From IMG/VR virus record IMGVR_UViG_2660238005_000005: 64,000 nt of DNA; one strand, 5' to 3'. Position numbers and translations under genes: made by a program. A model generated the notes under the pieces. It searched no databases, was not told where the DNA came from, and was given only the letters and a program-made list of their open reading frames with translations. Within the stretch, counting starts at the first letter, position 1. Each line of letters starts with the position of its first letter. Positions 24,581 to 58,065 of the stretch are shown piece by piece. This DNA comes from an uncultured virus (IMG/VR IMGVR_UViG_2660238005_000005) (taxonomy: Duplodnaviria; Heunggongvirae; Uroviricota; Caudoviricetes).

Positions 24581-24614
24581 AGAAAAGAGAAAGCCCCTCG
24601 AGCGAGGGGCTTTC
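24581..24614 (-). terminator. Late-leader terminator (tR'-like)
   Basis: 12-bp perfect stem GAAAGCCCCTCG/CGAGGGGCTTTC followed by TCTTTTCT. Confidence 0.75.
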
Positions 24615-24754
24615 AGGGTGACCCGGGCGGGGTAGCTCCGGGGCGGTTTGCACAGCACGTGCATCAATCGATGCCGGCCCGCCTTGGCGGATCTCGAACA
24701 CCATGGCGGCTTTGTACTCCCCGAACGGAAAAACCGAAAGGGGGGAATTATCGG

Positions 24755-25312
24755 TTATCCCGACACGGGCTGACGGGGGCTCGCGGGGGCTGACGGGGGA
24801 GCAATTGCCGACGAACGGTATTCACCATTTACCCCGCGTACGGCCTTGCCACGCCGCGCAGCAGTGCGCCGCCGCTCCACCTTCCGGAGCGCCTTGATCG
24901 CCTCCAGCGTGCCGGCATGCCGTCGGGTCAGTTCGCATAGCACCAGCTCATGGAGGCGCTGTACCCAATTGCGATAAGTACGGTCGGTGATTTCCCCGAC
25001 CTCAAGTGCCGCGATCTGCTGTTTGACGGTGCGCGGAGGACAACTCAGATAGCGCAAGCGCGCCAAGCGCGCGAGACATGCGCCTTCCTCCCCGCGCCGT
25101 TCGATCGCATCTATGCATGCCTGAACCTCGCGTGCACGATGATCAACGGAGGTACCGCCGAGCAACAACCGAGATCCTGGCTCGCCACGCGGCGGCGCTC
25201 CCTTCCAATCGATCAGTCCGGCTAGAGGACTGGCACCAGCGCCTTCCCCACCGAGCATCTGGCCGCACTGGACTGCCCAATGCCGCAGCAACACCTCCAC
25301 TACCTCAATCAT
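24755..25312 (-). CDS. Late-gene activator/antiterminator (Q-like, PA0613-like)
   Basis: LLRHWA N-terminus, C-terminal HTH (DRTYRNWVQRLH); Q position upstream of late leader. Confidence 0.65.
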   Translation of the reverse strand: MIEVVEVLLRHWAVQCGQMLGGEGAGASPLAGLIDWKGAPPRGEPGSRLLLGGTSVDHRAREVQACIDAIERRGEEGACLARLARLRYLSCPPRTVKQQIAALEVGEITDRTYRNWVQRLHELVLCELTRRHAGTLEAIKALRKVERRRTAARRGKAVRGVNGEYRSSAIAPPSAPASPRQPVSG

Positions 25313-25339
25313 CTGACCCGCCCCCCGCTGAAACCATGA

Positions 25340-25640
25340 CCCAACACAAATCTATGCAACCCAACACATACCCAACACAGACAAAAACCAATGAAATCAA
25401 AGGTTTTCGTGAGACTGTGTTGGGTGTGTTGGGTGTGTTGGTTTTTTGGAGGGATCGCGTGGAGAATTTTTCTTGAGTAGCCAGAGAGCAATGTGAAGAA
25501 TATTTTTTGCGCGCACGCGCGCCCGGGCGCGTAAACCCAACACACCCAACACACATGTCTAAACCCCGCGTGAGACGTGGCCTGGAGGTGTGTTGGGTTT
25601 GAAAAATCGCCCAACACACGGTCAACACACTCGACACACT
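25340..25640. repeat. Iteron array (CCCAACACA, direct and inverted), putative replication origin
   Basis: About 10 copies plus degenerate ones, AT-rich core, IHF-like AATCAAAGGTTTT near 25395, directly downstream of primase. Confidence 0.75.
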
Positions 25641-25648
25641 GAGCGGAT

Positions 25649-28378
25649 TCATGCGGCCGCCCCCTTCACGTGGTCCCAATTTTCCACGTTCCAGCCAGCC
25701 CGCATTGCTCGCTGCCGCCATACGACGACATGCGCACCCAGTTCGGCCGAGGTCGGCCTGGCCGGCATGAAACACTGCTCATCCTTCGGGAAGAAGAACG
25801 CAGCGAAACGTCGCGTATTGCGATCCGTCCAAGGAATCGCTCGCGTCTTGTCGATGCCGGCGGTGCTGATAAACAGACTGAACTTCGTCTGGCTCATCGA
25901 GTGCTCTTTGTTCCGGTGGCACCACTCCAGGAACAAGGCATACAGGTCAGAGGAAAGGCAAGCTCCCCATAGACCCTCCCCCAGCTCGCCTATCCGCCAG
26001 AGGTGCAGGAAAGTCTGCCATGTTGCCCTGCTTAACGCCACCAGACGGTCCCTCGCCGGTGTACTGGGCGGCTTGGTATGTTGGTCGAAGTCTCCTAGAT
26101 CTTGCGCGAGCAGCCATCCATATAGCGCTTCCACCCCACCATTCGCCAGTTCGTGAGCGATCGCCTTCTGCCGGTCGGGCGAAAGCTTTTCCTCTGGCCA
26201 CATCACCAGAAAGCGACGGTCGTCGGGGCTGATCGGCCAGGGCATGATTTCGTTGGAAAGGAACACGGCGTTCATGTGGCTGGCTTCCTCCCAGCCGTTC
26301 ACGAACTTGCTCTCGATACGCACCGTCTGCCCGGTGATCAGTTGCTTGATCTTCCCGACCTGGTTGTAGCGCTGATCTCGGCTGACAACCTCCTCAAAAA
26401 CAGCCCACAACTTTCCGCTCTGCCAGGCATTGAAGTTCCCCTCTAGTTGGGTCTGCCCCACCGTGGCCGAATACTGGCCATAAAGGCGCCCCATCACAAC
26501 GGAGAACAACAGGCTCTTGCCTGACCCTTCCATGGTGGAGTGCATGAGCACCGCGGTGTCCATCTTGGCCCCCGTATGCTGCAGCGGATATGCCAACCAA
26601 CGAACCAGCCACTCCATCGCATCCGTGTCTGCGTTGCACAAGAATTCAATGAGCCACCGCAGGTTCTCGCATGCTGCGTCATCGCGCTTGGGCTCCAGAG
26701 GCAACCCCTCGAAGGTGTTGATGGTCTCCTTCGGGTCAGATGACATCGTTGGGTCGAAAACGATGTTGTTCACGTCCACTACCCGCCGCTCCGGGCTGTT
26801 GAGCCATAGGCTGTAGGCGTCTCCTAGGGCCATTTTTACCGCGCCTTCCGGCACACGCCGTTTCTTCGCGTAGTCCCATACATCCTTAGTACCGTCGATG
26901 TACACGTATCGGGTCAGAGGCGGCATGCTCACTGGCCCTATTGCTTTGCCGGCCATCGCCCTGGCGCGCTCCCAGTCGCGCACTTGTTCCTCGCTGATCC
27001 GTTTCTTCTTCTTCGGATCAACGACTGCAGTCCACTCCTTGAAGAGATCCTTGCCGATCAGCGCTTCGAATGCGGCCCGTTTCATCTTGCGCGACTTGTC
27101 GATGTCCCACACGTTGGTGGTCCCTTCGATCAATGCATATCGCCGCAGCGCCTTCGCCAGAGTGAGGCCCTCCCCCGTCCCCCCGTCATCCGCGGAGTCG
27201 CCGTCAAGACCGTCGCCTGTATCAGATGGGGCGTGGGGAAGCTCTCCGCCGGCCGCACTAGGGGGGAGATCGGATGCACCTGGCTCGGGCGGCGGAGAGG
27301 GCGGCCTGACCTGGTGCTCGATGCCCAGCAGACGCGCAGCTGCTCGCACAGCGTTGGACTGGTTGCCGTTGTGCTCAAGCAGGCAGTACACGTCGAACGC
27401 ATCGTTCTGATGGCCGTTGGCTAGAGGATCTGAGCCATGGTGTGAATACACCCTTCCCTCGCTGACCGTCACGCCCGGCAACCCGGTACTACTTTGAGGG
27501 CACAGCCACTTCTTCCCCCGCTTGAGGTAGCCGTGCGCCTCAAGCAGCGCCTCGATATCGTGTGCGCGGTTGAAGGCATCGATAACCGAACCGGCACTAC
27601 CAGTCGCCGCCGGGCGCTTCGGTTTGGCGACCTTCATCGGTTTCTGCGGAGCCGGCGCCCAGGGGCAGGCCGCCTCGGCGTCACGCTTGAACGCATCCCA
27701 GTTGTTCCAGACACTGAGCAGAATGTCCGGCAGGAGCGGCAAACCCTCGCTTGATGGCGGGTTTCGCCAGGTGTAGGGCTCGCCGGTACCAGGGTGAATG
27801 GAGGGAGGCAACACGTCTTGGACCAACCCACCGCGAAGTTCAAACACGGTGAAGCGCCGGAGGCTATCCGCCTTGGCTTTCATCGCAGCAATCTGCGCCT
27901 GGTCACCCTTTTCTTTCGCCGCTCGAAGCGCTGCCTGGGCCAACTTGAACTTCGAGCCGTCCGGGTCGGCTTCGTTCGGCCAGTTGAGAGAATGTCGACT
28001 CAAGTCGATGCCGTCTGGCATCTTGAACAGGATCCGGAAACGTTCGGGGTTACCAACTGCGGTGGGGTACACCAGAGGCAAGGCGTCCAGGTCCAGACCG
28101 AGCAGGTCAAAGAGCACCTGGCGCGTCGCCGGTACATCGTCCACGTCCAGCGAACATACCCGACTGGGCCCGAGCACTACGCCCATGTTGTGCTTCGGGT
28201 GCTTCGTCCAGAACGCCTCAGCCTGGGCTGGGTCGGTAAAGTACCCGCCGGGCTGATTCCAGCGTTCTCCCTTTGGCGCTTTCTCGCCCGGGTCAATGGG
28301 GACCAGTGCCAACCCAAATTGCTCAATGTAGCGGCGCGCCCAGGCGGAGATAGGGCGTGGGGAAGTCTGCTTGTTCAC
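25649..28378 (-). CDS. Bifunctional primase/polymerase fused to superfamily-3 (D5-like) helicase
   Basis: N-terminal Prim-Pol (LDVD, VLPPSIHP), Walker A EGSGKS, FEE, FLSN, DRRF. Confidence 0.88.
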   Translation of the reverse strand: MNKQTSPRPISAWARRYIEQFGLALVPIDPGEKAPKGERWNQPGGYFTDPAQAEAFWTKHPKHNMGVVLGPSRVCSLDVDDVPATRQVLFDLLGLDLDALPLVYPTAVGNPERFRILFKMPDGIDLSRHSLNWPNEADPDGSKFKLAQAALRAAKEKGDQAQIAAMKAKADSLRRFTVFELRGGLVQDVLPPSIHPGTGEPYTWRNPPSSEGLPLLPDILLSVWNNWDAFKRDAEAACPWAPAPQKPMKVAKPKRPAATGSAGSVIDAFNRAHDIEALLEAHGYLKRGKKWLCPQSSTGLPGVTVSEGRVYSHHGSDPLANGHQNDAFDVYCLLEHNGNQSNAVRAAARLLGIEHQVRPPSPPPEPGASDLPPSAAGGELPHAPSDTGDGLDGDSADDGGTGEGLTLAKALRRYALIEGTTNVWDIDKSRKMKRAAFEALIGKDLFKEWTAVVDPKKKKRISEEQVRDWERARAMAGKAIGPVSMPPLTRYVYIDGTKDVWDYAKKRRVPEGAVKMALGDAYSLWLNSPERRVVDVNNIVFDPTMSSDPKETINTFEGLPLEPKRDDAACENLRWLIEFLCNADTDAMEWLVRWLAYPLQHTGAKMDTAVLMHSTMEGSGKSLLFSVVMGRLYGQYSATVGQTQLEGNFNAWQSGKLWAVFEEVVSRDQRYNQVGKIKQLITGQTVRIESKFVNGWEEASHMNAVFLSNEIMPWPISPDDRRFLVMWPEEKLSPDRQKAIAHELANGGVEALYGWLLAQDLGDFDQHTKPPSTPARDRLVALSRATWQTFLHLWRIGELGEGLWGACLSSDLYALFLEWCHRNKEHSMSQTKFSLFISTAGIDKTRAIPWTDRNTRRFAAFFFPKDEQCFMPARPTSAELGAHVVVWRQRAMRAGWNVENWDHVKGAAA

Positions 28379-28711: not shown

Positions 28712-28924
28712 TCACGCATTGCAACGCTCTCGGCGCGTCTGACACTCGACACAACAATCACATCCGGGTACCGCCAGCCGGCGAGCAGCTGGGATCTCCT
28801 CGCCGCAATCCTCACAGACGGTTTCGCTGATGCTGTAGGCCGGCGCTGGCCGGCGGCGGGCGGAGAGTGCTGCCTGCAGGTGTAACTCCTCTAGCAGGGA
28901 AGCGCGGTCGACGTCGTCAGCCAT
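28712..28924 (-). CDS. TraR/DksA C4 zinc-finger protein (PtrB-like)
   Basis: MADDVDRAS...CEDCGEEIPAARRLAVPGCDCCVECQ. Confidence 0.9.
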   Translation of the reverse strand: MADDVDRASLLEELHLQAALSARRRPAPAYSISETVCEDCGEEIPAARRLAVPGCDCCVECQTRRERCNA

Positions 28925-29417
28925 GAACGCCTTCCTCCTGATCTTTCTCCATTGCTTGGCGAGCGCCCGCCATGATGCCCAGGACAGCGCGAATCACGTT
29001 CGCACCGTGATACTCCAAGTCGGCAACCTCATCAGGCTCCCAACGATTGTCGTCCGCACCTTTATGCAAGCTGGCAACGAACTCGCCCTCGCGTTGGAGC
29101 AGGTCCCCTACTGCCTTAAGAGCGGAGGCCGTGGCGTTGACCGCTTCGGGCCGATACCAGACCGCTCCGGCAGGACGCACAAGGGCGGCGAGCAGGCGAG
29201 GATCAGAGGTCAGGCGAATAATGTCCTCAAGCTCATCCGGGTTCAGCCAACGCCGCTCCTCATCCAGCTTGAGTTTCTTCTGCAGGTCCTCGTAGGGGAC
29301 CATCATTTCGAGGGCCAGCTTGGTGAGCCCGCCCTGATAATCGCGCCCTGCGCGATAGAGTGCCTCGCGGAGGCTGAACACCGGACCGGCGTTCGGCAAA
29401 AGGTCTTTCCGGCTCAT
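28917..29417 (-). CDS. Phage regulatory CII-family protein (166 aa)
   Basis: AGGAG SD; MSRKDLLP...LQKKLK; position after cro. Confidence 0.65.
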   Translation of the reverse strand: MSRKDLLPNAGPVFSLREALYRAGRDYQGGLTKLALEMMVPYEDLQKKLKLDEERRWLNPDELEDIIRLTSDPRLLAALVRPAGAVWYRPEAVNATASALKAVGDLLQREGEFVASLHKGADDNRWEPDEVADLEYHGANVIRAVLGIMAGARQAMEKDQEEGVHG

Positions 29418-29419
29418 AA

Positions 29420-29471
29420 CCGTAAATGCTCCTTTTACGGTGTAGCCATCGAGCAAGGTAGGCCCTACTCT
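29420..29471 (+). promoter_or_regulatory. PRE-like promoter antisense to cro, with upstream palindrome
   Basis: TAGCCA-17-TACTCT (29443-29471); CCGTAAA-N7-TTTACGG (29420-29440) just upstream of -35. Confidence 0.5.
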
Positions 29472-29477
29472 ATGACC

Positions 29478-29580
29478 ACGACCGATGCATGTGCTGTGTC
29501 GTCGTAAGCCGTCCAAGGGGGTGAGAGCCCTTGAATGGCACCCGCCGGCGCGGGAGGTGAGAGTCCCGCGCCGGCATCCT
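29478..29580 (+). ncRNA. Putative structured antisense RNA / cis-element with two identical-loop hairpins
   Basis: Hairpins 29514-29533 and 29544-29575 both with loop GGTGAGAG; GCATGTGCTGTGTC complementary to early-gene start regions. Confidence 0.4.
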
Positions 29581-29817
29581 TCAAGCCGCTTGGGCAGTAA
29601 TGGATTCTTCGGTAATCCGATAATGCTCAAGCACTGCGGCAAGACTTACCTTGCCCTCGCTTTCCCGGAAGAGGGCCTTGATCAATGAAACACTTGGATC
29701 TTTGCTCGCGTACTTGACGTGCAAACGCAGGTAGTTGACAGAAATCGAGCAGCGCTTCGCATAGGACCGCAGTTGGTCATCGCCCATCTGGTCGATGTAT
29801 TCGCGTAGTTTCATCAT
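29581..29817 (-). CDS. cro: Cro-like HTH repressor
   Basis: 78 aa HTH, AGGAGG SD, divergent from cI. Confidence 0.75.
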   Translation of the reverse strand: MMKLREYIDQMGDDQLRSYAKRCSISVNYLRLHVKYASKDPSVSLIKALFRESEGKVSLAAVLEHYRITEESITAQAA

Positions 29818-29838
29818 CGTATGCCCTCCTACCGACAT

Positions 29839-29895: not shown

Positions 29896-30561
29896 ATGCA
29901 CAACACTTCACGGATGAATATTTCAGATACCAGACTCACCAACCTCCGGCGGATCATGGCCGAGCGCAAGCTTCGCTCAACCGACCTCGCGGACCTGCTC
30001 GGCAAGAGTCAGGCTCAGGTCAGCTCGTTCGCGGGAAAGAACCCCAGTAAAGGGATAGGAAACCAGATCGCTAGGGAGATAGAACTAGCACTGTCGCTTC
30101 CGAAAGGGATGCTTGATCTGTCTTTCGGTCCCAGCGAGCAGGGCAATGCAGTAGTACTTAGCTCCACAGGTAGGAAGCTGCCAGTGATCGGATCGGTAGC
30201 TGCAGGGAAATGGTGCGAAGCGGTCGACACCTTCTTACCAGGCGATGCGGAGGAATGGATCGAAGCACCAGGGCCAGTAGGCCCTAATGCATTCATTCTG
30301 AAAATTGAAGGTCTAAGCATGCTGCCCAAGTTCTCCGATGGCGAAAAGGTAGTCATAGACCCCTCGCTGGAGGCCTTGCCTGGCCACTACGTTGTCGCCA
30401 AGAAAACGAAGTCGCAGGAGGTCACCTTCAAGCAGTTGCGCAGAGAAGGTACCGAGTACTTCCTCTACGCCCTCAATCCTGACTGGCCAGACCGAATCAT
30501 CAAGCTCACCGAGGAGTGGCAGATTTGCGGCCGCGCCCGCTGGAAGATCACAGACCTTTGA
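29896..30561 (+). CDS. cI: CI-type repressor (HTH + S24 autopeptidase)
   Basis: VAAG cleavage site, EGLSM Ser, TFKQL Lys. Confidence 0.93.
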   Translation: MHNTSRMNISDTRLTNLRRIMAERKLRSTDLADLLGKSQAQVSSFAGKNPSKGIGNQIAREIELALSLPKGMLDLSFGPSEQGNAVVLSSTGRKLPVIGSVAAGKWCEAVDTFLPGDAEEWIEAPGPVGPNAFILKIEGLSMLPKFSDGEKVVIDPSLEALPGHYVVAKKTKSQEVTFKQLRREGTEYFLYALNPDWPDRIIKLTEEWQICGRARWKITDL

Positions 30562-30578: not shown

Positions 30579-30604
30579 GAGCCCGCGTGATGCGGGCTTT
30601 TTTC
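30579..30604 (+). terminator. cI terminator
   Basis: AGCCCGC-GTGAT-GCGGGCT followed by T-tract. Confidence 0.8.
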
Positions 30605-30634: not shown

Positions 30635-30686
30635 CAACCCCGGCAGGTTAACAATCTCTTGACTACTTAACCTTTGCGGTTAATAT
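30635..30686 (+). promoter_or_regulatory. PL-like promoter with OL operators
   Basis: TTGACT-16-TAATAT; operators CAACCC-N5-GGTTAA (30635-30651) and TTAACC-TTTGC-GGTTAA (30667-30683). Confidence 0.75.
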
Positions 30687-30724
30687 CAGGTGCGTACCCC
30701 CTCTCTCACTTCCGGAGTACGCAA

Positions 30725-30934
30725 ATGCAATCGGCACAGCACACGCCCAAAGTCCGCTGCCAGGTGCTACTTCACCCGGCTGCGGCCACCAGCCCCAGAG
30801 TCGTTCAGGAGATCCAAGCCCGAACCGGCCTGCTGGTGATCATTAGCACCTCCCACCGCGCCTGCCTCACCCAGCCGCGGCCTGCTGCCCACAGCACGGA
30901 TGACGAGTTCGGTCCGTGGGGAGGTGCGGCATGA
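30725..30934 (+). CDS. Hypothetical early protein (69 aa)
   Basis: GGAG SD; first gene after PL. Confidence 0.65.
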   Translation: MQSAQHTPKVRCQVLLHPAAATSPRVVQEIQARTGLLVIISTSHRACLTQPRPAAHSTDDEFGPWGGAA

Positions 30935-31813: not shown

Positions 31814-32098
31814 ATGAACCGGGATATCCGCCATGCAGCTGCCGCACTCGGCATCAGCGAACGGGACCTGCGCAACCACCTGCGGCAGCACAAGGATCTG
31901 AATCAGGACGGCACCCTGGCGGCCAAGCACATCGGCCAGGGCCACCTGTTCATGGATCCGCGCTCGCGCTGGAACCCGCGACTGGGCCAGTACACCCACT
32001 ACAGCGTGGTGATGGTCACCGAGGCTGGAATCGCCTACCTGGCCAAGCGCCTCGGCGTGTCCATCACCGTCACCCAGCACAAGGACGACGTGGCATGA
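31814..32098 (+). CDS. Antirepressor KilAC-like DNA-binding protein
   Basis: AAAALGISERDLRNHL...VTEAGIAYL. Confidence 0.6.
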   Translation: MNRDIRHAAAALGISERDLRNHLRQHKDLNQDGTLAAKHIGQGHLFMDPRSRWNPRLGQYTHYSVVMVTEAGIAYLAKRLGVSITVTQHKDDVA

Positions 32099-32696: not shown

Positions 32697-32914
32697 TCGA
32701 CGCGCCCCGGCGCAACCGGGTTAAACGACAGGGAGGAATGGCAGCCATGTAGACATCCCAACCGGGGCAGGTCAGCCCAACTGGCCGAGCTGGATCAGCA
32801 GTCACATATGGCGGCGTATGTGAAACCGGAAGGCCTGGCGACGGGCCTTCCCCATAGGGCTCTCCACGAGAGCCCTATGGGGAACTCACCCAAACAAACT
32901 ATGAGGCACAGCAC

Positions 32915-33253
32915 ATGAAAAGACCCTTTCTCGACACCCTGCGCGACGTTGAGTCCGGTGGATTGCTGGACGAACTCACCGACGCCCAACACAGCCTGAT
33001 CGACGCCATCCGCCTGACCAACAAAGCCGGAGAACTGACCATCAAGCTGACCTACAAGCCCGAAGGCGCTGGACAGATGACGATCAAGGCCGACGTGAAG
33101 ACCAAGGAACCTGTTCTGGCACGCGGCACCTCGCTGTTCTTCCTCACCCCTGAGGGGAACCTCTCCAGGCGCGACCCGCGTCAGCAGGAACTGAGCCTGC
33201 GGACCGTTGATACCGACCCGGCGCCCGAGCTTCGGCAAGCGGCTAGCGAGTAA
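32915..33253 (+). CDS. YfdP-like prophage protein
   Basis: FLDTL...FFLTPEGNL; precedes YfdQ-like gene. Confidence 0.65.
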   Translation: MKRPFLDTLRDVESGGLLDELTDAQHSLIDAIRLTNKAGELTIKLTYKPEGAGQMTIKADVKTKEPVLARGTSLFFLTPEGNLSRRDPRQQELSLRTVDTDPAPELRQAASE

Positions 33254-33285
33254 CCACCACCCTCACGCTCAAAGGAGCACCACGC

Positions 33286-34107
33286 ATGCAACAAGCCATT
33301 CAACAGTTGGTCAACCTCTCACAAGCCCTGGGCAAACCAATCGACCATCCTGGGCTATCCGCGCCTCTCGCCCTCGTACCGAACGGGGTGGAAATCGAAA
33401 GCCTGGAACACCTGCTGCCTGCCCCCACCCGAACCCGGAAGCAAGTCACCCTCCTCGATGCTGAAACCTTCATCGCGTACGTGTCGCGATTCTCCACGGC
33501 TGCAACCGCCGTGTTCTGCAACGGACCGGAAGGCCGGACCTTCTCGGCGATCATCGACTACCACCAACCCGAGCAGCCCGCCTGGTGCGACCACGTTGCA
33601 ACCTATCGCTGCCCGACAACCGTCGAATGGGGCAACTGGAAGGGGCACGATCGCAAGCGGCTGGATCAGGCCGGGTTCGCAGAGTTCATCGAGGACAACG
33701 TGAAGGACATTGTCCAGCCGGCTGACCAACCTTCGGCACCGTCTGCGGCGGACATGCTCGAGATCAGCCGCACCTTGGAGGCAAAGAAGAACATCACTTT
33801 CCGCCAGGGCACCCGGCTCGATAACGGCCAGATCCAACTCACCTACAACGAAGAAATCGATGGCCGCGCCGGGGCTACTGGCCAGTTGAGTATCCCCGAG
33901 CAGTTCTTCATCGGAGTGAAGCCCTTCCTCGGTGGTGACGCGTTCCTCATCACCGCTCGCTTCCGTTACCGCATCCAGGAATCCCGACTGGTGATGTGGT
34001 ACGAACTCGTCCGCCCCGACAAGGTGCTGGAGGAGGCCTATGGAGCCGTCCGCGCGAAGATCCAGAGCGGAATCGGCGAAGTGCCGCTGTACGAGGCGAC
34101 CATCTAA
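33286..34107 (+). CDS. YfdQ/DUF2303 family protein
   Basis: IIDYH...QAGFAEFIEDN motifs. Confidence 0.75.
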   Translation: MQQAIQQLVNLSQALGKPIDHPGLSAPLALVPNGVEIESLEHLLPAPTRTRKQVTLLDAETFIAYVSRFSTAATAVFCNGPEGRTFSAIIDYHQPEQPAWCDHVATYRCPTTVEWGNWKGHDRKRLDQAGFAEFIEDNVKDIVQPADQPSAPSAADMLEISRTLEAKKNITFRQGTRLDNGQIQLTYNEEIDGRAGATGQLSIPEQFFIGVKPFLGGDAFLITARFRYRIQESRLVMWYELVRPDKVLEEAYGAVRAKIQSGIGEVPLYEATI

Positions 34108-34182
34108 CCCATCCATCAACACGCCTCGCCGCCAGACTCTCACACAATCCCTGGCGGCGCGGCGTCCAACAGGACACAGCAC

Positions 34183-34917
34183 ATGCCTATCACCTATCAG
34201 TTCATTATCGGCGGACTGGCTCTCGCCTGCGCCGCGGTTCTGTTCTTCGCACTGCGCGCCTCTCGCGCCGCATATGCCAATGGCTACAACTCCGGCCACG
34301 ACGATGCATCCCGAGCCTGTGAACTCCGCATCGAAGACCAGCAGGTCCACATTCGAGCGCTCCAGGCCGACCTGGGCGCGATGCAAGCGAAACACATCAA
34401 CGATCGTGCCGCACTGCTTCTGCAGGCCGACCAGGTCCTGGACAGGAACAACGCCCGTAACCAGAACGCTCAGTTTCAGCCAGGCGACGTAGACACCCTC
34501 ACCACCTCCGCGAAGCTGCTTCGATTGGCCGGAGACGTGTTCGCCCGCCTGCACGCTAACGACAAGGCTGAAGAGGCCCACGCCGCGCAGGACGCAATCC
34601 GCGCGTTGCTCCAGCGCATCCCGGCCGCACTCGCCGCTGAAGTGCCCCCGCCGCTTGATACCAAGCTGTTTGACTTCCTTGAGCAGCATGCAACCGGCTC
34701 CGCGGACGTCGGCACCTTCACCTTGAGCTTCGAGGTCGGCGACACCTTCCGGGGCACCAGGACGATCCGCGAGGCCGTCACCTACGCCTTGGTCAAGGCC
34801 GAGGAGTCCGAAGCACCTGGGGCCAATCTGCCGCACGCCAAGTCGACAGACGGACTCTCCGCCTGGGAGGCGGTGGACCTCGACTACACCGGCGACACCG
34901 CGCCGATGTGCATGTGA
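34183..34917 (+). CDS. Hypothetical protein with N-terminal TM anchor and coiled coil (244 aa)
   Basis: AGGA SD; hydrophobic N-terminus. Confidence 0.65.
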   Translation: MPITYQFIIGGLALACAAVLFFALRASRAAYANGYNSGHDDASRACELRIEDQQVHIRALQADLGAMQAKHINDRAALLLQADQVLDRNNARNQNAQFQPGDVDTLTTSAKLLRLAGDVFARLHANDKAEEAHAAQDAIRALLQRIPAALAAEVPPPLDTKLFDFLEQHATGSADVGTFTLSFEVGDTFRGTRTIREAVTYALVKAEESEAPGANLPHAKSTDGLSAWEAVDLDYTGDTAPMCM

Positions 34918-38131: not shown

Positions 38132-38653
38132 TCAAACTCTGTCGTGAAAATGTAGCTGTACAGGTCGAGGTAAGATGTCAGAAAGCGATTTCGGCGTAAT
38201 GCCCACTGCCCTTGCTCTTTTGAATAGCTGCTTGTCGTGAGTCCATATTTCCTTGGCACCACTCGCGACGGCGATGGCTAGGATTTGACGATCATATTTG
38301 AGCTTGGCCATCTTGGCGTCAGGGTCTATGTTCTTCAGTTCCTGGTTGGTAACCAGAAGAGCACATTCAACAGCCGCCAACTGGTCAAACGGAACCACCT
38401 CAATCGATTTCGCGCTATTGATGATATCGAGATGGGTTTGATAACTGCTGCGCTCAATTCCCAGGAGATACTCAGAAACCACGGGGGCCGGCAGGATCAC
38501 CGTCCCCTTCATTGTCTCAATCTGCTCAACCAAGGCAACGGCGCGCCTGAAGGCATCGTCGACAACCTCGCCGGTTTCGGGATTCATCAAATCCGTTGCG
38601 CCATCATCCTGCATGATCTGCACCAGAACGTTGGTGTCGATGACTATCTTCAA
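38132..38653 (-). CDS. PIN/VapC-domain ribonuclease
   Basis: IVIDTNVL, VVSEYL, YDRQILAIA, WTHD acidic tetrad; TTG start 2 nt after upstream stop. Confidence 0.88.
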   Translation of the reverse strand: MKIVIDTNVLVQIMQDDGATDLMNPETGEVVDDAFRRAVALVEQIETMKGTVILPAPVVSEYLLGIERSSYQTHLDIINSAKSIEVVPFDQLAAVECALLVTNQELKNIDPDAKMAKLKYDRQILAIAVASGAKEIWTHDKQLFKRARAVGITPKSLSDILPRPVQLHFHDRV

Positions 38654-38655
38654 AC

Positions 38656-39369
38656 CTAGCCCCTACTCCCAAGAATCTCAGAATGCGCGTCAGGTGAAGC
38701 GCTCCATTTCACCCCTCCAGCAGCTTTAAGCCTTGCAACCGCTTCTTTGAAACTGATGTCCTCAAGCAGTGTGAACGTCTTCACTTTCAGCTTGACTAGT
38801 CGCCACTGCCCGCTGTCGAGTCTGACCCACTCGCCGGTACCCTCCAGGCGTACAGTCTTGAAGATCACTTTGGCGAGGTTTTCGGCGACCTCTATGTCGG
38901 CTTCGCAGTAGAGTGTCTCGCCATTGGCGCCTTCCAATCGCACTGGTACCGTTTCATCTTTGCCTCCAACGCTGTAGAGGCGGCCTTGGACAGATGATGG
39001 TTTAACCACGCGAAGAGCATCTTCAGCTTCCTGGGGTTTAGGAAACTGAAATATCTGAGCCCCGCCTAACGTACGCAGCGAAGCTCCCGTCCTGTCCTCG
39101 GACATCAGTTCTGAGAGCTTTTGGAATGCCGCCTGAGCCTTTTTGGGGCCCAGCCCGCCGGACACTTCTCTAACCTGATTGAGTACAACAGGGTATTGAT
39201 CGTCTTCTACATAGGCGACTAACTGAGCAGATCCCTCTTTCACCCGCTCAAAGTGGACCGCGCTTTCCGCCCCGTACATCGTGGCCAGCGCGCGCAAATA
39301 GTCCGTCAGCCGCTTCATCGAGAGGCGGTTTGGCGTGAGGTCATCGAGGTAAAGCGTCAGCTCTTTCAT
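38656..39369 (-). CDS. Uncharacterised 237-aa protein, partner of PIN gene (beta-rich, possibly OB-fold, C-terminal half)
   Basis: Operonic with PIN; lower GC than flanks; TATAAT 6 nt before ATG. Confidence 0.8.
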   Translation of the reverse strand: MKELTLYLDDLTPNRLSMKRLTDYLRALATMYGAESAVHFERVKEGSAQLVAYVEDDQYPVVLNQVREVSGGLGPKKAQAAFQKLSELMSEDRTGASLRTLGGAQIFQFPKPQEAEDALRVVKPSSVQGRLYSVGGKDETVPVRLEGANGETLYCEADIEVAENLAKVIFKTVRLEGTGEWVRLDSGQWRLVKLKVKTFTLLEDISFKEAVARLKAAGGVKWSASPDAHSEILGSRG

Positions 39370-39710: not shown

Positions 39711-40139
39711 TCAGCCTAAGCGGCTCGCCACCTCTGTTGCAGTCGCATTGTAGTAGACCATGAGCGACCGGGGGTCACGGTGTCCCGTCATCCTGGCCAG
39801 GTCGAGCACATCGAGTTTCCTGGCAAGCCGGGTCGTCGCTTCGTGGCGGGTATCGTGGAAGTTCAGCCCGTTGATTTTCTGTCTGTCCCGCACCTTCCGA
39901 AAGAGGGTATCGGCCGAGCCAGACGACAGCGTGAACAGTTCCTGGCGCTTCCCGGCAGCCTCTATCAGAACTTGGAGCAAGGTCACCGCGCGAGAACTAA
40001 GCGGCACCTTCCGAGCATCGCCATTCTTCGTCTCGGCCAGTTCGACGTAGCGGGCACTCAAGTGGACCCGGGCAGCAACCAGGCCAAGGATTTCGCCCTG
40101 CCGCATCGCCGTCTCCAGAGCGATCAGGAAGGCGTAGGC
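39711..40139 (-). pseudogene. int: Tyrosine integrase, C-terminal catalytic part; interrupted by Mu-like phage
   Basis: ETAMRQGE (R), TKNG (K), HDTRHE (HxxR), TGH, VYY; similarity ends at the TG terminus at 40140. Confidence 0.88.
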
Positions 40140-40187
40140 TGTAGCGCGGCGCGAAATTTGGCGCGGATTTGCGCAATAAATGACGCG
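40140..40187. repeat. Phage terminus with two putative transposase-binding sites
   Basis: TG at 40140; GCGCGAAATTTGGCGCG (40149-40165) and GCGCAATAAATGACGCG (40171-40187), 22-bp period. Confidence 0.6.
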
Positions 40188-40226
40188 CCCTAGCCGTTTC
40201 GTGTGCGGCAAAAGAATTTCAAAAGA

Positions 40227-56823: not shown

Positions 56824-58065
56824 CTACTTGGCTCCCTTGGTGATGTGGGTAACGGCCTCGGTCGTGCTGATATGGCGTCCAGCCTGCCGCTGTTCTTCCT
56901 GATAGCTCTGCGCTCGCGCTGCAATGGCGTGAGCACTGCCGAAGCTCAGGTCGCCGCCGTCGCCGGATTTCTCGGAAAAGTCCACCTGCTTGGGCAGTTC
57001 GGCCAGCAAGCTGCGCAGCACCTCGGCCGCCGGCTTGGTGACCTGGCCGTCGCCCTCGGCGAACTCCAGGGGAGTGTCGGCAGGCAGACTCACCAGCAAC
57101 TCGATCACCGGAGCCTTCTGGCGCGGCAGCAGTCGGCCGGCCTTGACCAGGCCTTCGGCGAACTCGGTGACCTCGTTGCGATGTTCCTGGGCTTTTTGCT
57201 GGGCCACCTGTGCTTCGCGGGTGGCCAGCAGTTGCTCGCGCTCGTCGAGCTGGCGTTGGCGCTCCTGGAGCGCAGCTTCGTCAGGCATGGTCGTGTCCTG
57301 CTGTGATGGGTGAGAGGTCCGGTCAGCCTCTGCCGCTGACGCGGAAGCACCGTCGGATGGGGTGACGGTGCCCTGCGGCTCTTCCGCAGCGGCGGCAGAG
57401 GCTGCTGCGGCGTCGACGCCTTCTATTGCGGGTTCGGAGAACGACGCCTGGGCACTGGCGCCGTGGGTGGCTGCACGCCGCGCGTCCTCCTCGATCGAAG
57501 ACAACTGCCATTGTGGGATGAGCTGGTCGGCCCGTTCGGCGCCTTCGCGCTCGACGAAGAAGTCACGCAGGCGGCGCAGGATCTCGGTCAGAGCCGTCAC
57601 CGCGTAGGGCGCTTCCGCGAACTCGATGGCCAGGGCGCCGTCATCCTCGGCGAAGTTCAAGGGAGCATCGGGAATGCCTTTGATGGCCGGCGGCACGGCA
57701 CCGAGGAAGCCGATATGGCGCAAGTAGTGCTTGCCCGGAACCGGGTTGCCTGGTGAGTCCGGTAGGTACACCGAAGCGCTGCGCTTCTTGTACATCTTGC
57801 GGTTCGCGGCTTCTGCGAACTCGGGGACTACCTGGTGCGGCTCGGCATAGAGCATGCCCTCGCGCACCTCCAGGCCCTTGGCCCAGCCGTAGGCCGGTGC
57901 ATTGAGCTTGGGGTGACCGATGACGAGAGGGGCCTCGCTGAGCGCCGGATCGTAGGTCGCGGCGATCTCCTGCAGGATGGCCTCGGTGAACTCCACCGGG
58001 CGACCATCGAGAGCGACGTGCCGGCCGGCGGGGAGGATTGGCAGAGTGGCGGTTGGCTTTTTCAT
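56824..58065 (-). CDS. Prohead protease (Mu gpI-like) with nested scaffold (gpZ-like, internal start 57288)
   Basis: PLVIGHP, AYGW, YKKRSAS, LRHIGFLGA.PPAIKG; internal AGGA SD before MPDEAALQ. Confidence 0.85.
   Translation of the reverse strand: MKKPTATLPILPAGRHVALDGRPVEFTEAILQEIAATYDPALSEAPLVIGHPKLNAPAYGWAKGLEVREGMLYAEPHQVVPEFAEAANRKMYKKRSASVYLPDSPGNPVPGKHYLRHIGFLGAVPPAIKGIPDAPLNFAEDDGALAIEFAEAPYAVTALTEILRRLRDFFVEREGAERADQLIPQWQLSSIEEDARRAATHGASAQASFSEPAIEGVDAAAASAAAAEEPQGTVTPSDGASASAAEADRTSHPSQQDTTMPDEAALQERQRQLDEREQLLATREAQVAQQKAQEHRNEVTEFAEGLVKAGRLLPRQKAPVIELLVSLPADTPLEFAEGDGQVTKPAAEVLRSLLAELPKQVDFSEKSGDGGDLSFGSAHAIAARAQSYQEEQRQAGRHISTTEAVTHITKGAK

Follow-up and report, generated by a model that had tools for sequence, protein, structure and literature searches.

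RNAs of the C4/CI type mature from a longer precursor in a process that involves RNase P, and short RNAs are also made from lambdoid late promoters, lambda 6S and StxS being examples. In P1 and P7, the phage RNA C4 pairs through loop-exposed sequences around the ribosome-binding site of an operon that holds a small first ORF and an antirepressor gene, and heteroimmunity is sequence-specific (excerpts of PMC12197685 and PMC8198154); c4 itself shares an operon with icd and ant (excerpts of PMC8198154). The small CI RNA of P4 (seqA/seqC) silences lytic genes in the lysogen by two-site pairing, is processed from the transcript that it terminates, and has targets that flank it (excerpts of PMC4825925). 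The CII protein of phage 186 recognizes an inverted repeat at -38 and -58 of pE, a promoter with negligible basal activity (excerpts of PMC6593788), and aQ is an RNA made from a CII-dependent promoter (excerpts of PMC12197685). The c4-a1b1 motif has been listed without an Rfam number (excerpts of PMC2864571).

An original prediction, made from a 64,000-nucleotide stretch of DNA of an uncultured virus (IMG/VR IMGVR_UViG_2660238005_000005; hereafter the window), placed a candidate antisense RNA between cII and cro and read it as an RNA-based layer of the lysis-lysogeny switch. Here, we compared this locus with its relatives and with the systems above. Given the pattern of complementarity and conservation, we consider it likely that the element encodes an antisense RNA of about 100 nt that acts in trans to repress the translation of the early-left (pL operon) genes.

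Results

The locus and its relatives

Judged by its sequence, the window is a Lodos/Turba-like lambdoid temperate phage of the P. aeruginosa type. Positions 29200-29800 are 99% identical to phages Presto, Lodos, and Turba, and the gene order is the same as in Lodos, where the cro-position gene is annotated as an antirepressor. The early-left operon contains a 69-aa ORF, a dNMP kinase, an ANT/KilA-C gene, an excisionase-like gene, yfdP- and yfdQ-like genes (the yfdP name is taken from the PG1 record), a 244-aa ORF, an HD phosphatase, and a methylase. The ANT domain gene, whose PF03374 match is barely above the cut-off, lies three genes downstream of the 69-aa first ORF. Coordinates are collected in Table 1.

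Table 1. Positions of the candidate RNA, its control signals, its putative targets, and the neighboring genes in the window
Feature	Position	Strand	Remarks
Late-promoter leader before holin	24583..24705	-	ends in intrinsic terminator; seed at 24665-24650
Operator-like palindrome ACCGA-N13-TCGGT	24733..24755	.	over -35 region of late promoter
cII-like gene	28917..29417	-	phrog_101; Pfam PF06892 Phage_CP76 (186/P2-type CII)
Inverted repeat, probable CII operator	29417..29443	.	5-bp cores ACCGT/ACGGT, 13-bp spacer
Promoter TAGCCA-17-TACTCT	29443..29471	+	pE/pRE position; TAGCCA 29443-29448, TACTCT 29466-29471
Candidate small RNA, three hairpins	29478..29578	+	between cro and 186-type cII
Seed GCATGTGCTGTGTC	29487..29500	+	in hairpin 1 (29478-29505): 5-nt loop plus G-U-rich arm
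Hairpin 2	29508..29539	+	loop GGUGAGAG (29520-29527)
Hairpin 3	29544..29575	+	loop GGUGAGAG (29556-29563)
cro-position gene	29581..29820	-	no family match; presumed cro from its position opposite cI
cI-like repressor	29896..30561	+	HTH plus S24 peptidase
Terminator after cI	30579-30599		
pL-like promoter TTGACT-16-TAATAT	30659..30686	+	3' of cI terminator
Target 1	30691..30746	+	CUCUCAC in the loop of a leader hairpin whose 3' arm holds the SD; CACAGCAC follows at codons 3-6
ANT/KilA-C domain gene	31814..32098	+	in targeted operon; PF03374 26.1 bits vs cut-off 25.3
Target 2, seed-only	32905..32917	+	over yfdP-like start codon
Target 3	34122..34186	+	CUCUCAC loop hairpin (34137), SD, CACAGCAC-AUG of 244-aa gene

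Relatives were gathered via CII, with CII identity down to about 43%, and the named ones are Pseudomonas or Stutzerimonas phages. The set of 165 loci comprised the window, Lodos, 117 database loci (a Streptomyces match having been dropped), 42 of 65 further loci (short loci and near-duplicates were removed by eye), and 4 phage records. Conservation across these 165 loci extends to promoter, fold, seed, and loop. A pattern scan of viral contigs returned 177 stretches, 80 of them with flanks, and 116 matches (39 RNA genes, 70 target-like, and 7 apparent chance matches); it showed no wider host range.

Other parts of these genomes gave separate observations. Lodos (L001, 15715-15922) keeps the yfdP start and target 3, with about 1.06 kb of yfdP-yfdQ between them missing. 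The window carries a two-gene insert (phrog_21691 and phrog_19868; 38132-39369 and 39711-40211) beside an integrase-like ORF of only 166 aa, directly after which come tail-region genes; this may reflect circular permutation of the record or a cut integrase. A non-coding stretch 3' of the primase (25335-25640) holds many CCCAACACA and TGTGTTGGG repeats in both orientations, as for a replication origin. A close relative (L005) has an Rfam RT-15 RNA match of 172 bits at 646-836, in its early-left accessory region.

Fold of the RNA element and search of Rfam

The promoter-like boxes, the seed, and the two stems displaying the same loop were all found where the original prediction had put them. The + strand of the element region folds with a z score of -5.3, and GGTGAGAG appears at 29520 and 29556, each time as an 8-nt loop on a separate stem. 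Many relatives have a single loop hairpin only, and the minimal RNA among them consists of one seed hairpin and one loop hairpin in 70-80 nt, others having extra units. Among 39 single-unit sequences, both-side changes occurred in 10 of 21 pairs, above all 500 shuffles, which ignore kinship. Opening both partner loops costs 0.0 kcal/mol and opening the seed hairpin 7.8 kcal/mol, with seed duplexes of -20 to -25 kcal/mol. A conserved ACC follows the loop hairpin. The terminator scan found no intrinsic terminator at the RNA 3' end, and we infer that this end is made by trimming or partial termination. In the cro-cII gap of L120, L121, and L144-L154, the arrays are longer: a terminator-like hairpin sits at the center, and further loop and seed units come after it in reverse order.

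The element withstood the search for a known Rfam family, which would have removed its novelty: the window had no match at the gathering score, and for C4 (RF01695) in particular, 29300-29700 had none at E values up to 10 and 8 related loci had none. Weak E-value matches to the HDV ribozyme (20.7 bits vs 50) and to a group II fragment were rejected.

A CII-operator-like palindrome upstream of a conserved promoter

A relaxed pattern of the promoter matched in 165/165 loci. The sigma-70 consensus scan misses the promoter because it lies too far from consensus, and the call therefore rests on conservation. Relative to the presumed RNA start (+1) at 29478, the 7-mer halves of the upstream palindrome, centered at 29420 and 29440, lie at -58 and -38. 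This is the geometry of 186 pE: an inverted repeat at -38/-58, a position at the start of a PF06892 cII, and an orientation facing cI. As with 186 pE and lambda pRE, the promoter points from the cII start back through cro/apl to cI. The RNA is thus probably the 5' end of the establishment transcript.

Of the 165 loci, 132 have ACCGT/ACGGT as operator cores and 14 have near variants of these; GGTAG/CTACC takes their place in 18, PG1 has a third type, and the 13-bp core spacing was invariant. The CII helix region varies in step with the cores, in three classes. In the GGTAG group, the spacer lacks self-complementarity, which fits a DNA operator better than a hairpin. The palindrome probably serves as a CII operator, which would tie the RNA to the establishment of lysogeny. 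A second perfect ACCGT-N13-ACGGT (45713), in a tail-region ORF, was taken as chance because it has no counterpart in 153 loci, most of which do not reach that far.

Expression and strand

In a Nanopore RNA run seen as contigs (X9), which is strandless and a poor measure of level, mean depth was 2893 over 29382-29612, compared with 14.6 over cro, 1.4-13.6 over cII, and 69-84 over cI. Depth was only 120 at 29470, so the bulk of the signal probably falls within 29471-29612. Of the other three runs, X1 gave one flat contig, and X20 and X23 gave 0 reads. A deep RNA beside a shallow cII fits poorly with strict CII dependence and differs from the negligible basal activity of 186 pE; it suggests basal activity or high stability. 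One X9 contig, at 29333-29369, has a loose end before 29369 that we take to resemble sequencing adapter, similar ends being scattered elsewhere. A weak promoter-like CTGATA-16-TAGAGT just upstream of 29369, inside cII, is a possible second + strand start. A further X9 peak, also strandless (137-290 vs about 10), covers the primase 3' end at 25633-26147 and could reflect a promoter or an antisense RNA ahead of the phrog_4300 gene.

Because the - strand of the element equals the target motif at a place like that of lambda nutR, a cis-acting element needed testing; we take the position of the element to match nutR and that of the motif in the pL leader to match nutL. The - strand also folds well (z -4.4), with CUCUCACC in its loops. 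Fold energy was lower on the + strand in 53 of 54 distinct sequences, and G-U pairs numbered 277/1512 on the + strand vs 45/1245 on the other strand. A strand-neutral count, with registers set by Watson-Crick pairs only, gave 105 G-T vs 26 A-C oppositions in 105 stems. Wobble polarity and the strand bias of the motif favor an RNA read from the + strand, whereas a nut-type element would have its structure on the pR sense strand, opposite to the one that the wobble pairs point to.

Putative two-part target sites in the early-left genes

Seed complementarity in the window is 14/14 at 34173-34186, 13 nt with one G-U at 32905-32917, and 12 nt with one G-U at 30732-30743, which reaches 30746 with one mismatch; these lengths bear out the predicted pairings. 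Loop complements had been predicted upstream of each site. This holds for targets 1 and 3, where CTCTCAC lies in hairpin loops (30703 and 34137) and two elements of the RNA are predicted to pair with two target elements, but not for yfdP. There, CTCACC at 32885 lies outside any loop and is one of 28 copies of this 6-mer on the + strand, and we rejected a loop match, which was absent from 19/19 distinct yfdP starts, all 19 of them with the seed site. The gene of target 1 is the first early-left ORF (30725-30934), of no known family; atlas and PDB searches gave no name for either target protein and no CII structure.

The pattern CTCTCAC-N15-40-CACAGCAC occurs three times in the window (the RNA's own complement and two targets) vs 0.01 expected, and CACAGCACATG three times vs 0.05 expected; for both patterns, 0 of 100 shuffles reached 3 occurrences. 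A chance origin of the two-part matches in the window is excluded. Copies of GGTGAGAG at 57309 and 18634 and of CACAGCAC at 30890 and 37202 were rejected as targets because they lack start-codon context and the sole match of the RNA model on the window is at 29475-29543.

Among the related loci, sites with seed and loop were present at the first ORF in 99/113, at yfdQ in 6/21, at the 244-aa ORF in 4/4, and at the kinase in 3/54, while two-part sites were absent from KilA-C (0/104), excisionase (0/117), and HD (0/34) starts. The motif CACAGC(A/T)C(A/G)TG was found 149 times on the pL sense strand vs 2 times on the other strand of 93 loci, with at least one copy in 79 of them, and the extra copies sit exactly at internal start codons. 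The canonical two-part target is missing in 11 of 135 loci of at least 5 kb, several of which keep the loop site. At the yfdQ start, the window has a degenerate seed site (33270-33288), and L005, L007, L009, and L011 have a full two-part site. In the Stutzerimonas-type loci L148-L154, the cII coding start has ACAGCA at codons 3-6, and cII may be a target there.

RNA and targets change together

A first-gene leader was found in 128 of the 165 loci (82 distinct). Co-variation, which the prediction had named as a test, was borne out for the loops and for several seed variants. The RNA loop word equals the leader loop word in 75 of the 82 distinct leaders, in five variants (GUGAGAG 59, GUAGAG 3, GUCAGAG 1, GUGAGUG 6, and GUAAGUG 6), and most of the 7 leaders with differing words keep a shifted match of 7-10 nt. 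The longest complement in a leader averages 11.5 nt for its own RNA vs 6.4 nt for RNAs of other loop classes, the own RNA being strictly the best partner in 63/82. Stretches shared by RNA and target reach 13-15 nt, and in the largest group the loop match extends into an SD-like AAAGA. The distal target 3 changes along with the RNA as well (for example in L005, L011, L012, and L013), and paired changes persist across distances of 1.2 and 4-5 kb, with the stems and flanks diverging.

A quick CII tree of 94 rows places the loop variants in different clades. Because kin share labels, the number of independent loop changes behind the co-variation is about four or five on this tree, not 75. Seed variants come with matching target changes in L114, L179, L116, and L173 and without them in L042, L044, L090, L093, and L122.

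A late-promoter leader carries a second seed

Of the 165 loci, 28 gave no anchor for the late leader and 33 were duplicates; GUGCUGUG was present in 86 of the 104 distinct leaders and absent from 18. X9 contig depth over the leader was 55.6 vs 0-3.6 in flanking bins. Among 83 distinct late promoters, the palindrome ACCGA-N13-TCGGT is perfect in 58, most of the rest have close variants, and the 3 Stutzerimonas-type ones lack it. A palindrome of this kind, a CACGA stretch, and the seed are common to the pE and late promoters. The late leader has no loop element and would pair over only 8-9 nt. We also considered the phrog_4300 protein encoded before the late promoter as a CII paralogue, but no such relationship was detectable.

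Discussion

The results support the reading of an RNA-based layer in the lysis-lysogeny switch and refine it: the yfdP site is seed-only, the palindrome upstream of the promoter resembles a CII operator, and a late leader carries a second seed. There is a good probability, in our view, that the RNA is real, conserved, and a probably undescribed multi-target antisense repressor that resembles C4/CI in its two-site pairing without being a member of the C4 family.

With C4 (immI; RF01695), the element shares two-site pairing near the ribosome-binding site and a specificity set by co-variation; as in C4/CI systems, RNA and target change together between phages. Unlike C4, it has its own promoter beyond cI and runs antisense to cro-cII, and its targets are several start codons as much as 4.7 kb distant. 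C4 and CI RNAs lie inside the transcript that they control, with targets flanking them; here, cI, its terminator, and the pL-like promoter separate the RNA from its targets, which, unlike those of P4 CI RNA, are in a separate transcript. With no Rfam match and a place outside the transcript controlled, the RNA does not belong with C4. Lambda OOP, aQ, and P22 sar are also small RNAs in the switch region, but each acts on one overlapping target, whereas the RNA described here has short two-part matches to several separate genes. The late leader resembles lambdoid late-promoter RNAs in running from promoter to terminator before the lysis genes; unlike lambda 6S and StxS, it has the seed of the cro-cII RNA, which is complementary to early start codons of the same phage. 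We know of no trans-acting RNA cut from a pE or pRE leader, and found none in the literature searched. Nor did we find a description of this RNA there, supplements and most subscription papers lying outside that scope; motif catalogues in supplements could contain the element. The comparison also drew on excerpts of bioRxiv 10.64898/2026.09.22.753630, and the available part of the main text of the Lodos/Turba paper (PMC11846083) yielded no sRNA mention.

In the mechanism that we propose, an open GGUGAGAG loop would pair first, loop to loop, with the CUCUCAC loop of the target leader by or over the Shine-Dalgarno sequence. The weak, G-U-rich hairpin 1 would open next, and the seed would cover the start codon or codons 3-6, so that ribosomes are blocked. 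By polarity from the blocked first small ORF, as in P1 immI and P4, the ANT/KilA-C gene and the excisionase downstream would probably be silenced as well. CII probably boosts the RNA promoter during establishment, since this promoter has the geometry of 186 pE, and read-through would also supply cI. The RNA would then be a second lock on early-left functions, and the loop variants possibly define specificity groups. We infer this repression and any role in immunity.

A cis-acting, nut-like element was weighed as the chief alternative to antisense repression. In that case, a phage protein would bind the - strand motif in the cro-cII transcript and in the pL leader for antitermination, and the complementarity would be a by-product. 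The - strand motif, a loop followed by CACAGCAC, has the same sense as in the pL leader, its position and orientation fit, that strand folds with CUCUCACC in the loops, and co-variation of the copies would be expected too. Yet the wobble pairs favor the + strand, a conserved + strand promoter and operator lie just upstream, extra copies fall exactly at internal start codons with shared stretches of 13-15 nt, X9 depth peaks far above that of cro and cII, and the first pL ORF has no family match as an antiterminator; we regard this explanation as improbable. Pairing in trans might instead activate, with the loop interaction opening the leader hairpin that hides the Shine-Dalgarno sequence of the first pL gene. 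In target 1, the SD does lie within a hairpin arm, and Gifsy-1 IsrK offers a precedent with orf45 (excerpts of PMC4825925), but the seed would lie over the AUG at targets 2 and 3 and over codons 3-6 at target 1, and the loop match of the largest group reaches the SD-like AAAGA, which makes activation unlikely.

We rate as very unlikely a third reading, in which CACAGCAC serves as a DNA site or is left over from duplication of promoter and ribosome-binding modules, with the hairpins acting only as a cro terminator and a stabilizer of the pE leader. The palindrome, CACGA stretch, and seed found at both the pE and late promoters do suggest duplication, and the RNA model matches the complements of target sites. 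Against this stand the strict strand bias, the start-codon register, and the paired changes maintained over 1.2 and 4-5 kb despite diverging stems and flanks.

Antisense repression might also form part of a wider scheme, which we put forward tentatively as a possibility. CII would shut off the early-left genes through two RNAs by binding palindromes of nearly the same sequence, one at pE and one at the late promoter. The pE leader would serve both as the beginning of the cI establishment message and as an antisense RNA with several targets, a second copy of the seed would come from the late leader, and the loop variants would constitute an RNA-coded immunity independent of CI operators.

The RNA-target match and the co-change point to RNA control over phage dormancy. 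If this is true, a common group of temperate phages of Pseudomonas and Stutzerimonas adds a trans-acting, multi-target RNA to the textbook protein switch, and this RNA layer sits at the establishment promoter itself. The targets would then flag the first pL ORF, yfdP, and the 244-aa ORF as genes that the lysogen must keep off. The GUGAGAG, GUAGAG, and GUCAGAG loops are natural allele pairs in close P. aeruginosa-type phages, which would allow direct specificity swap tests.
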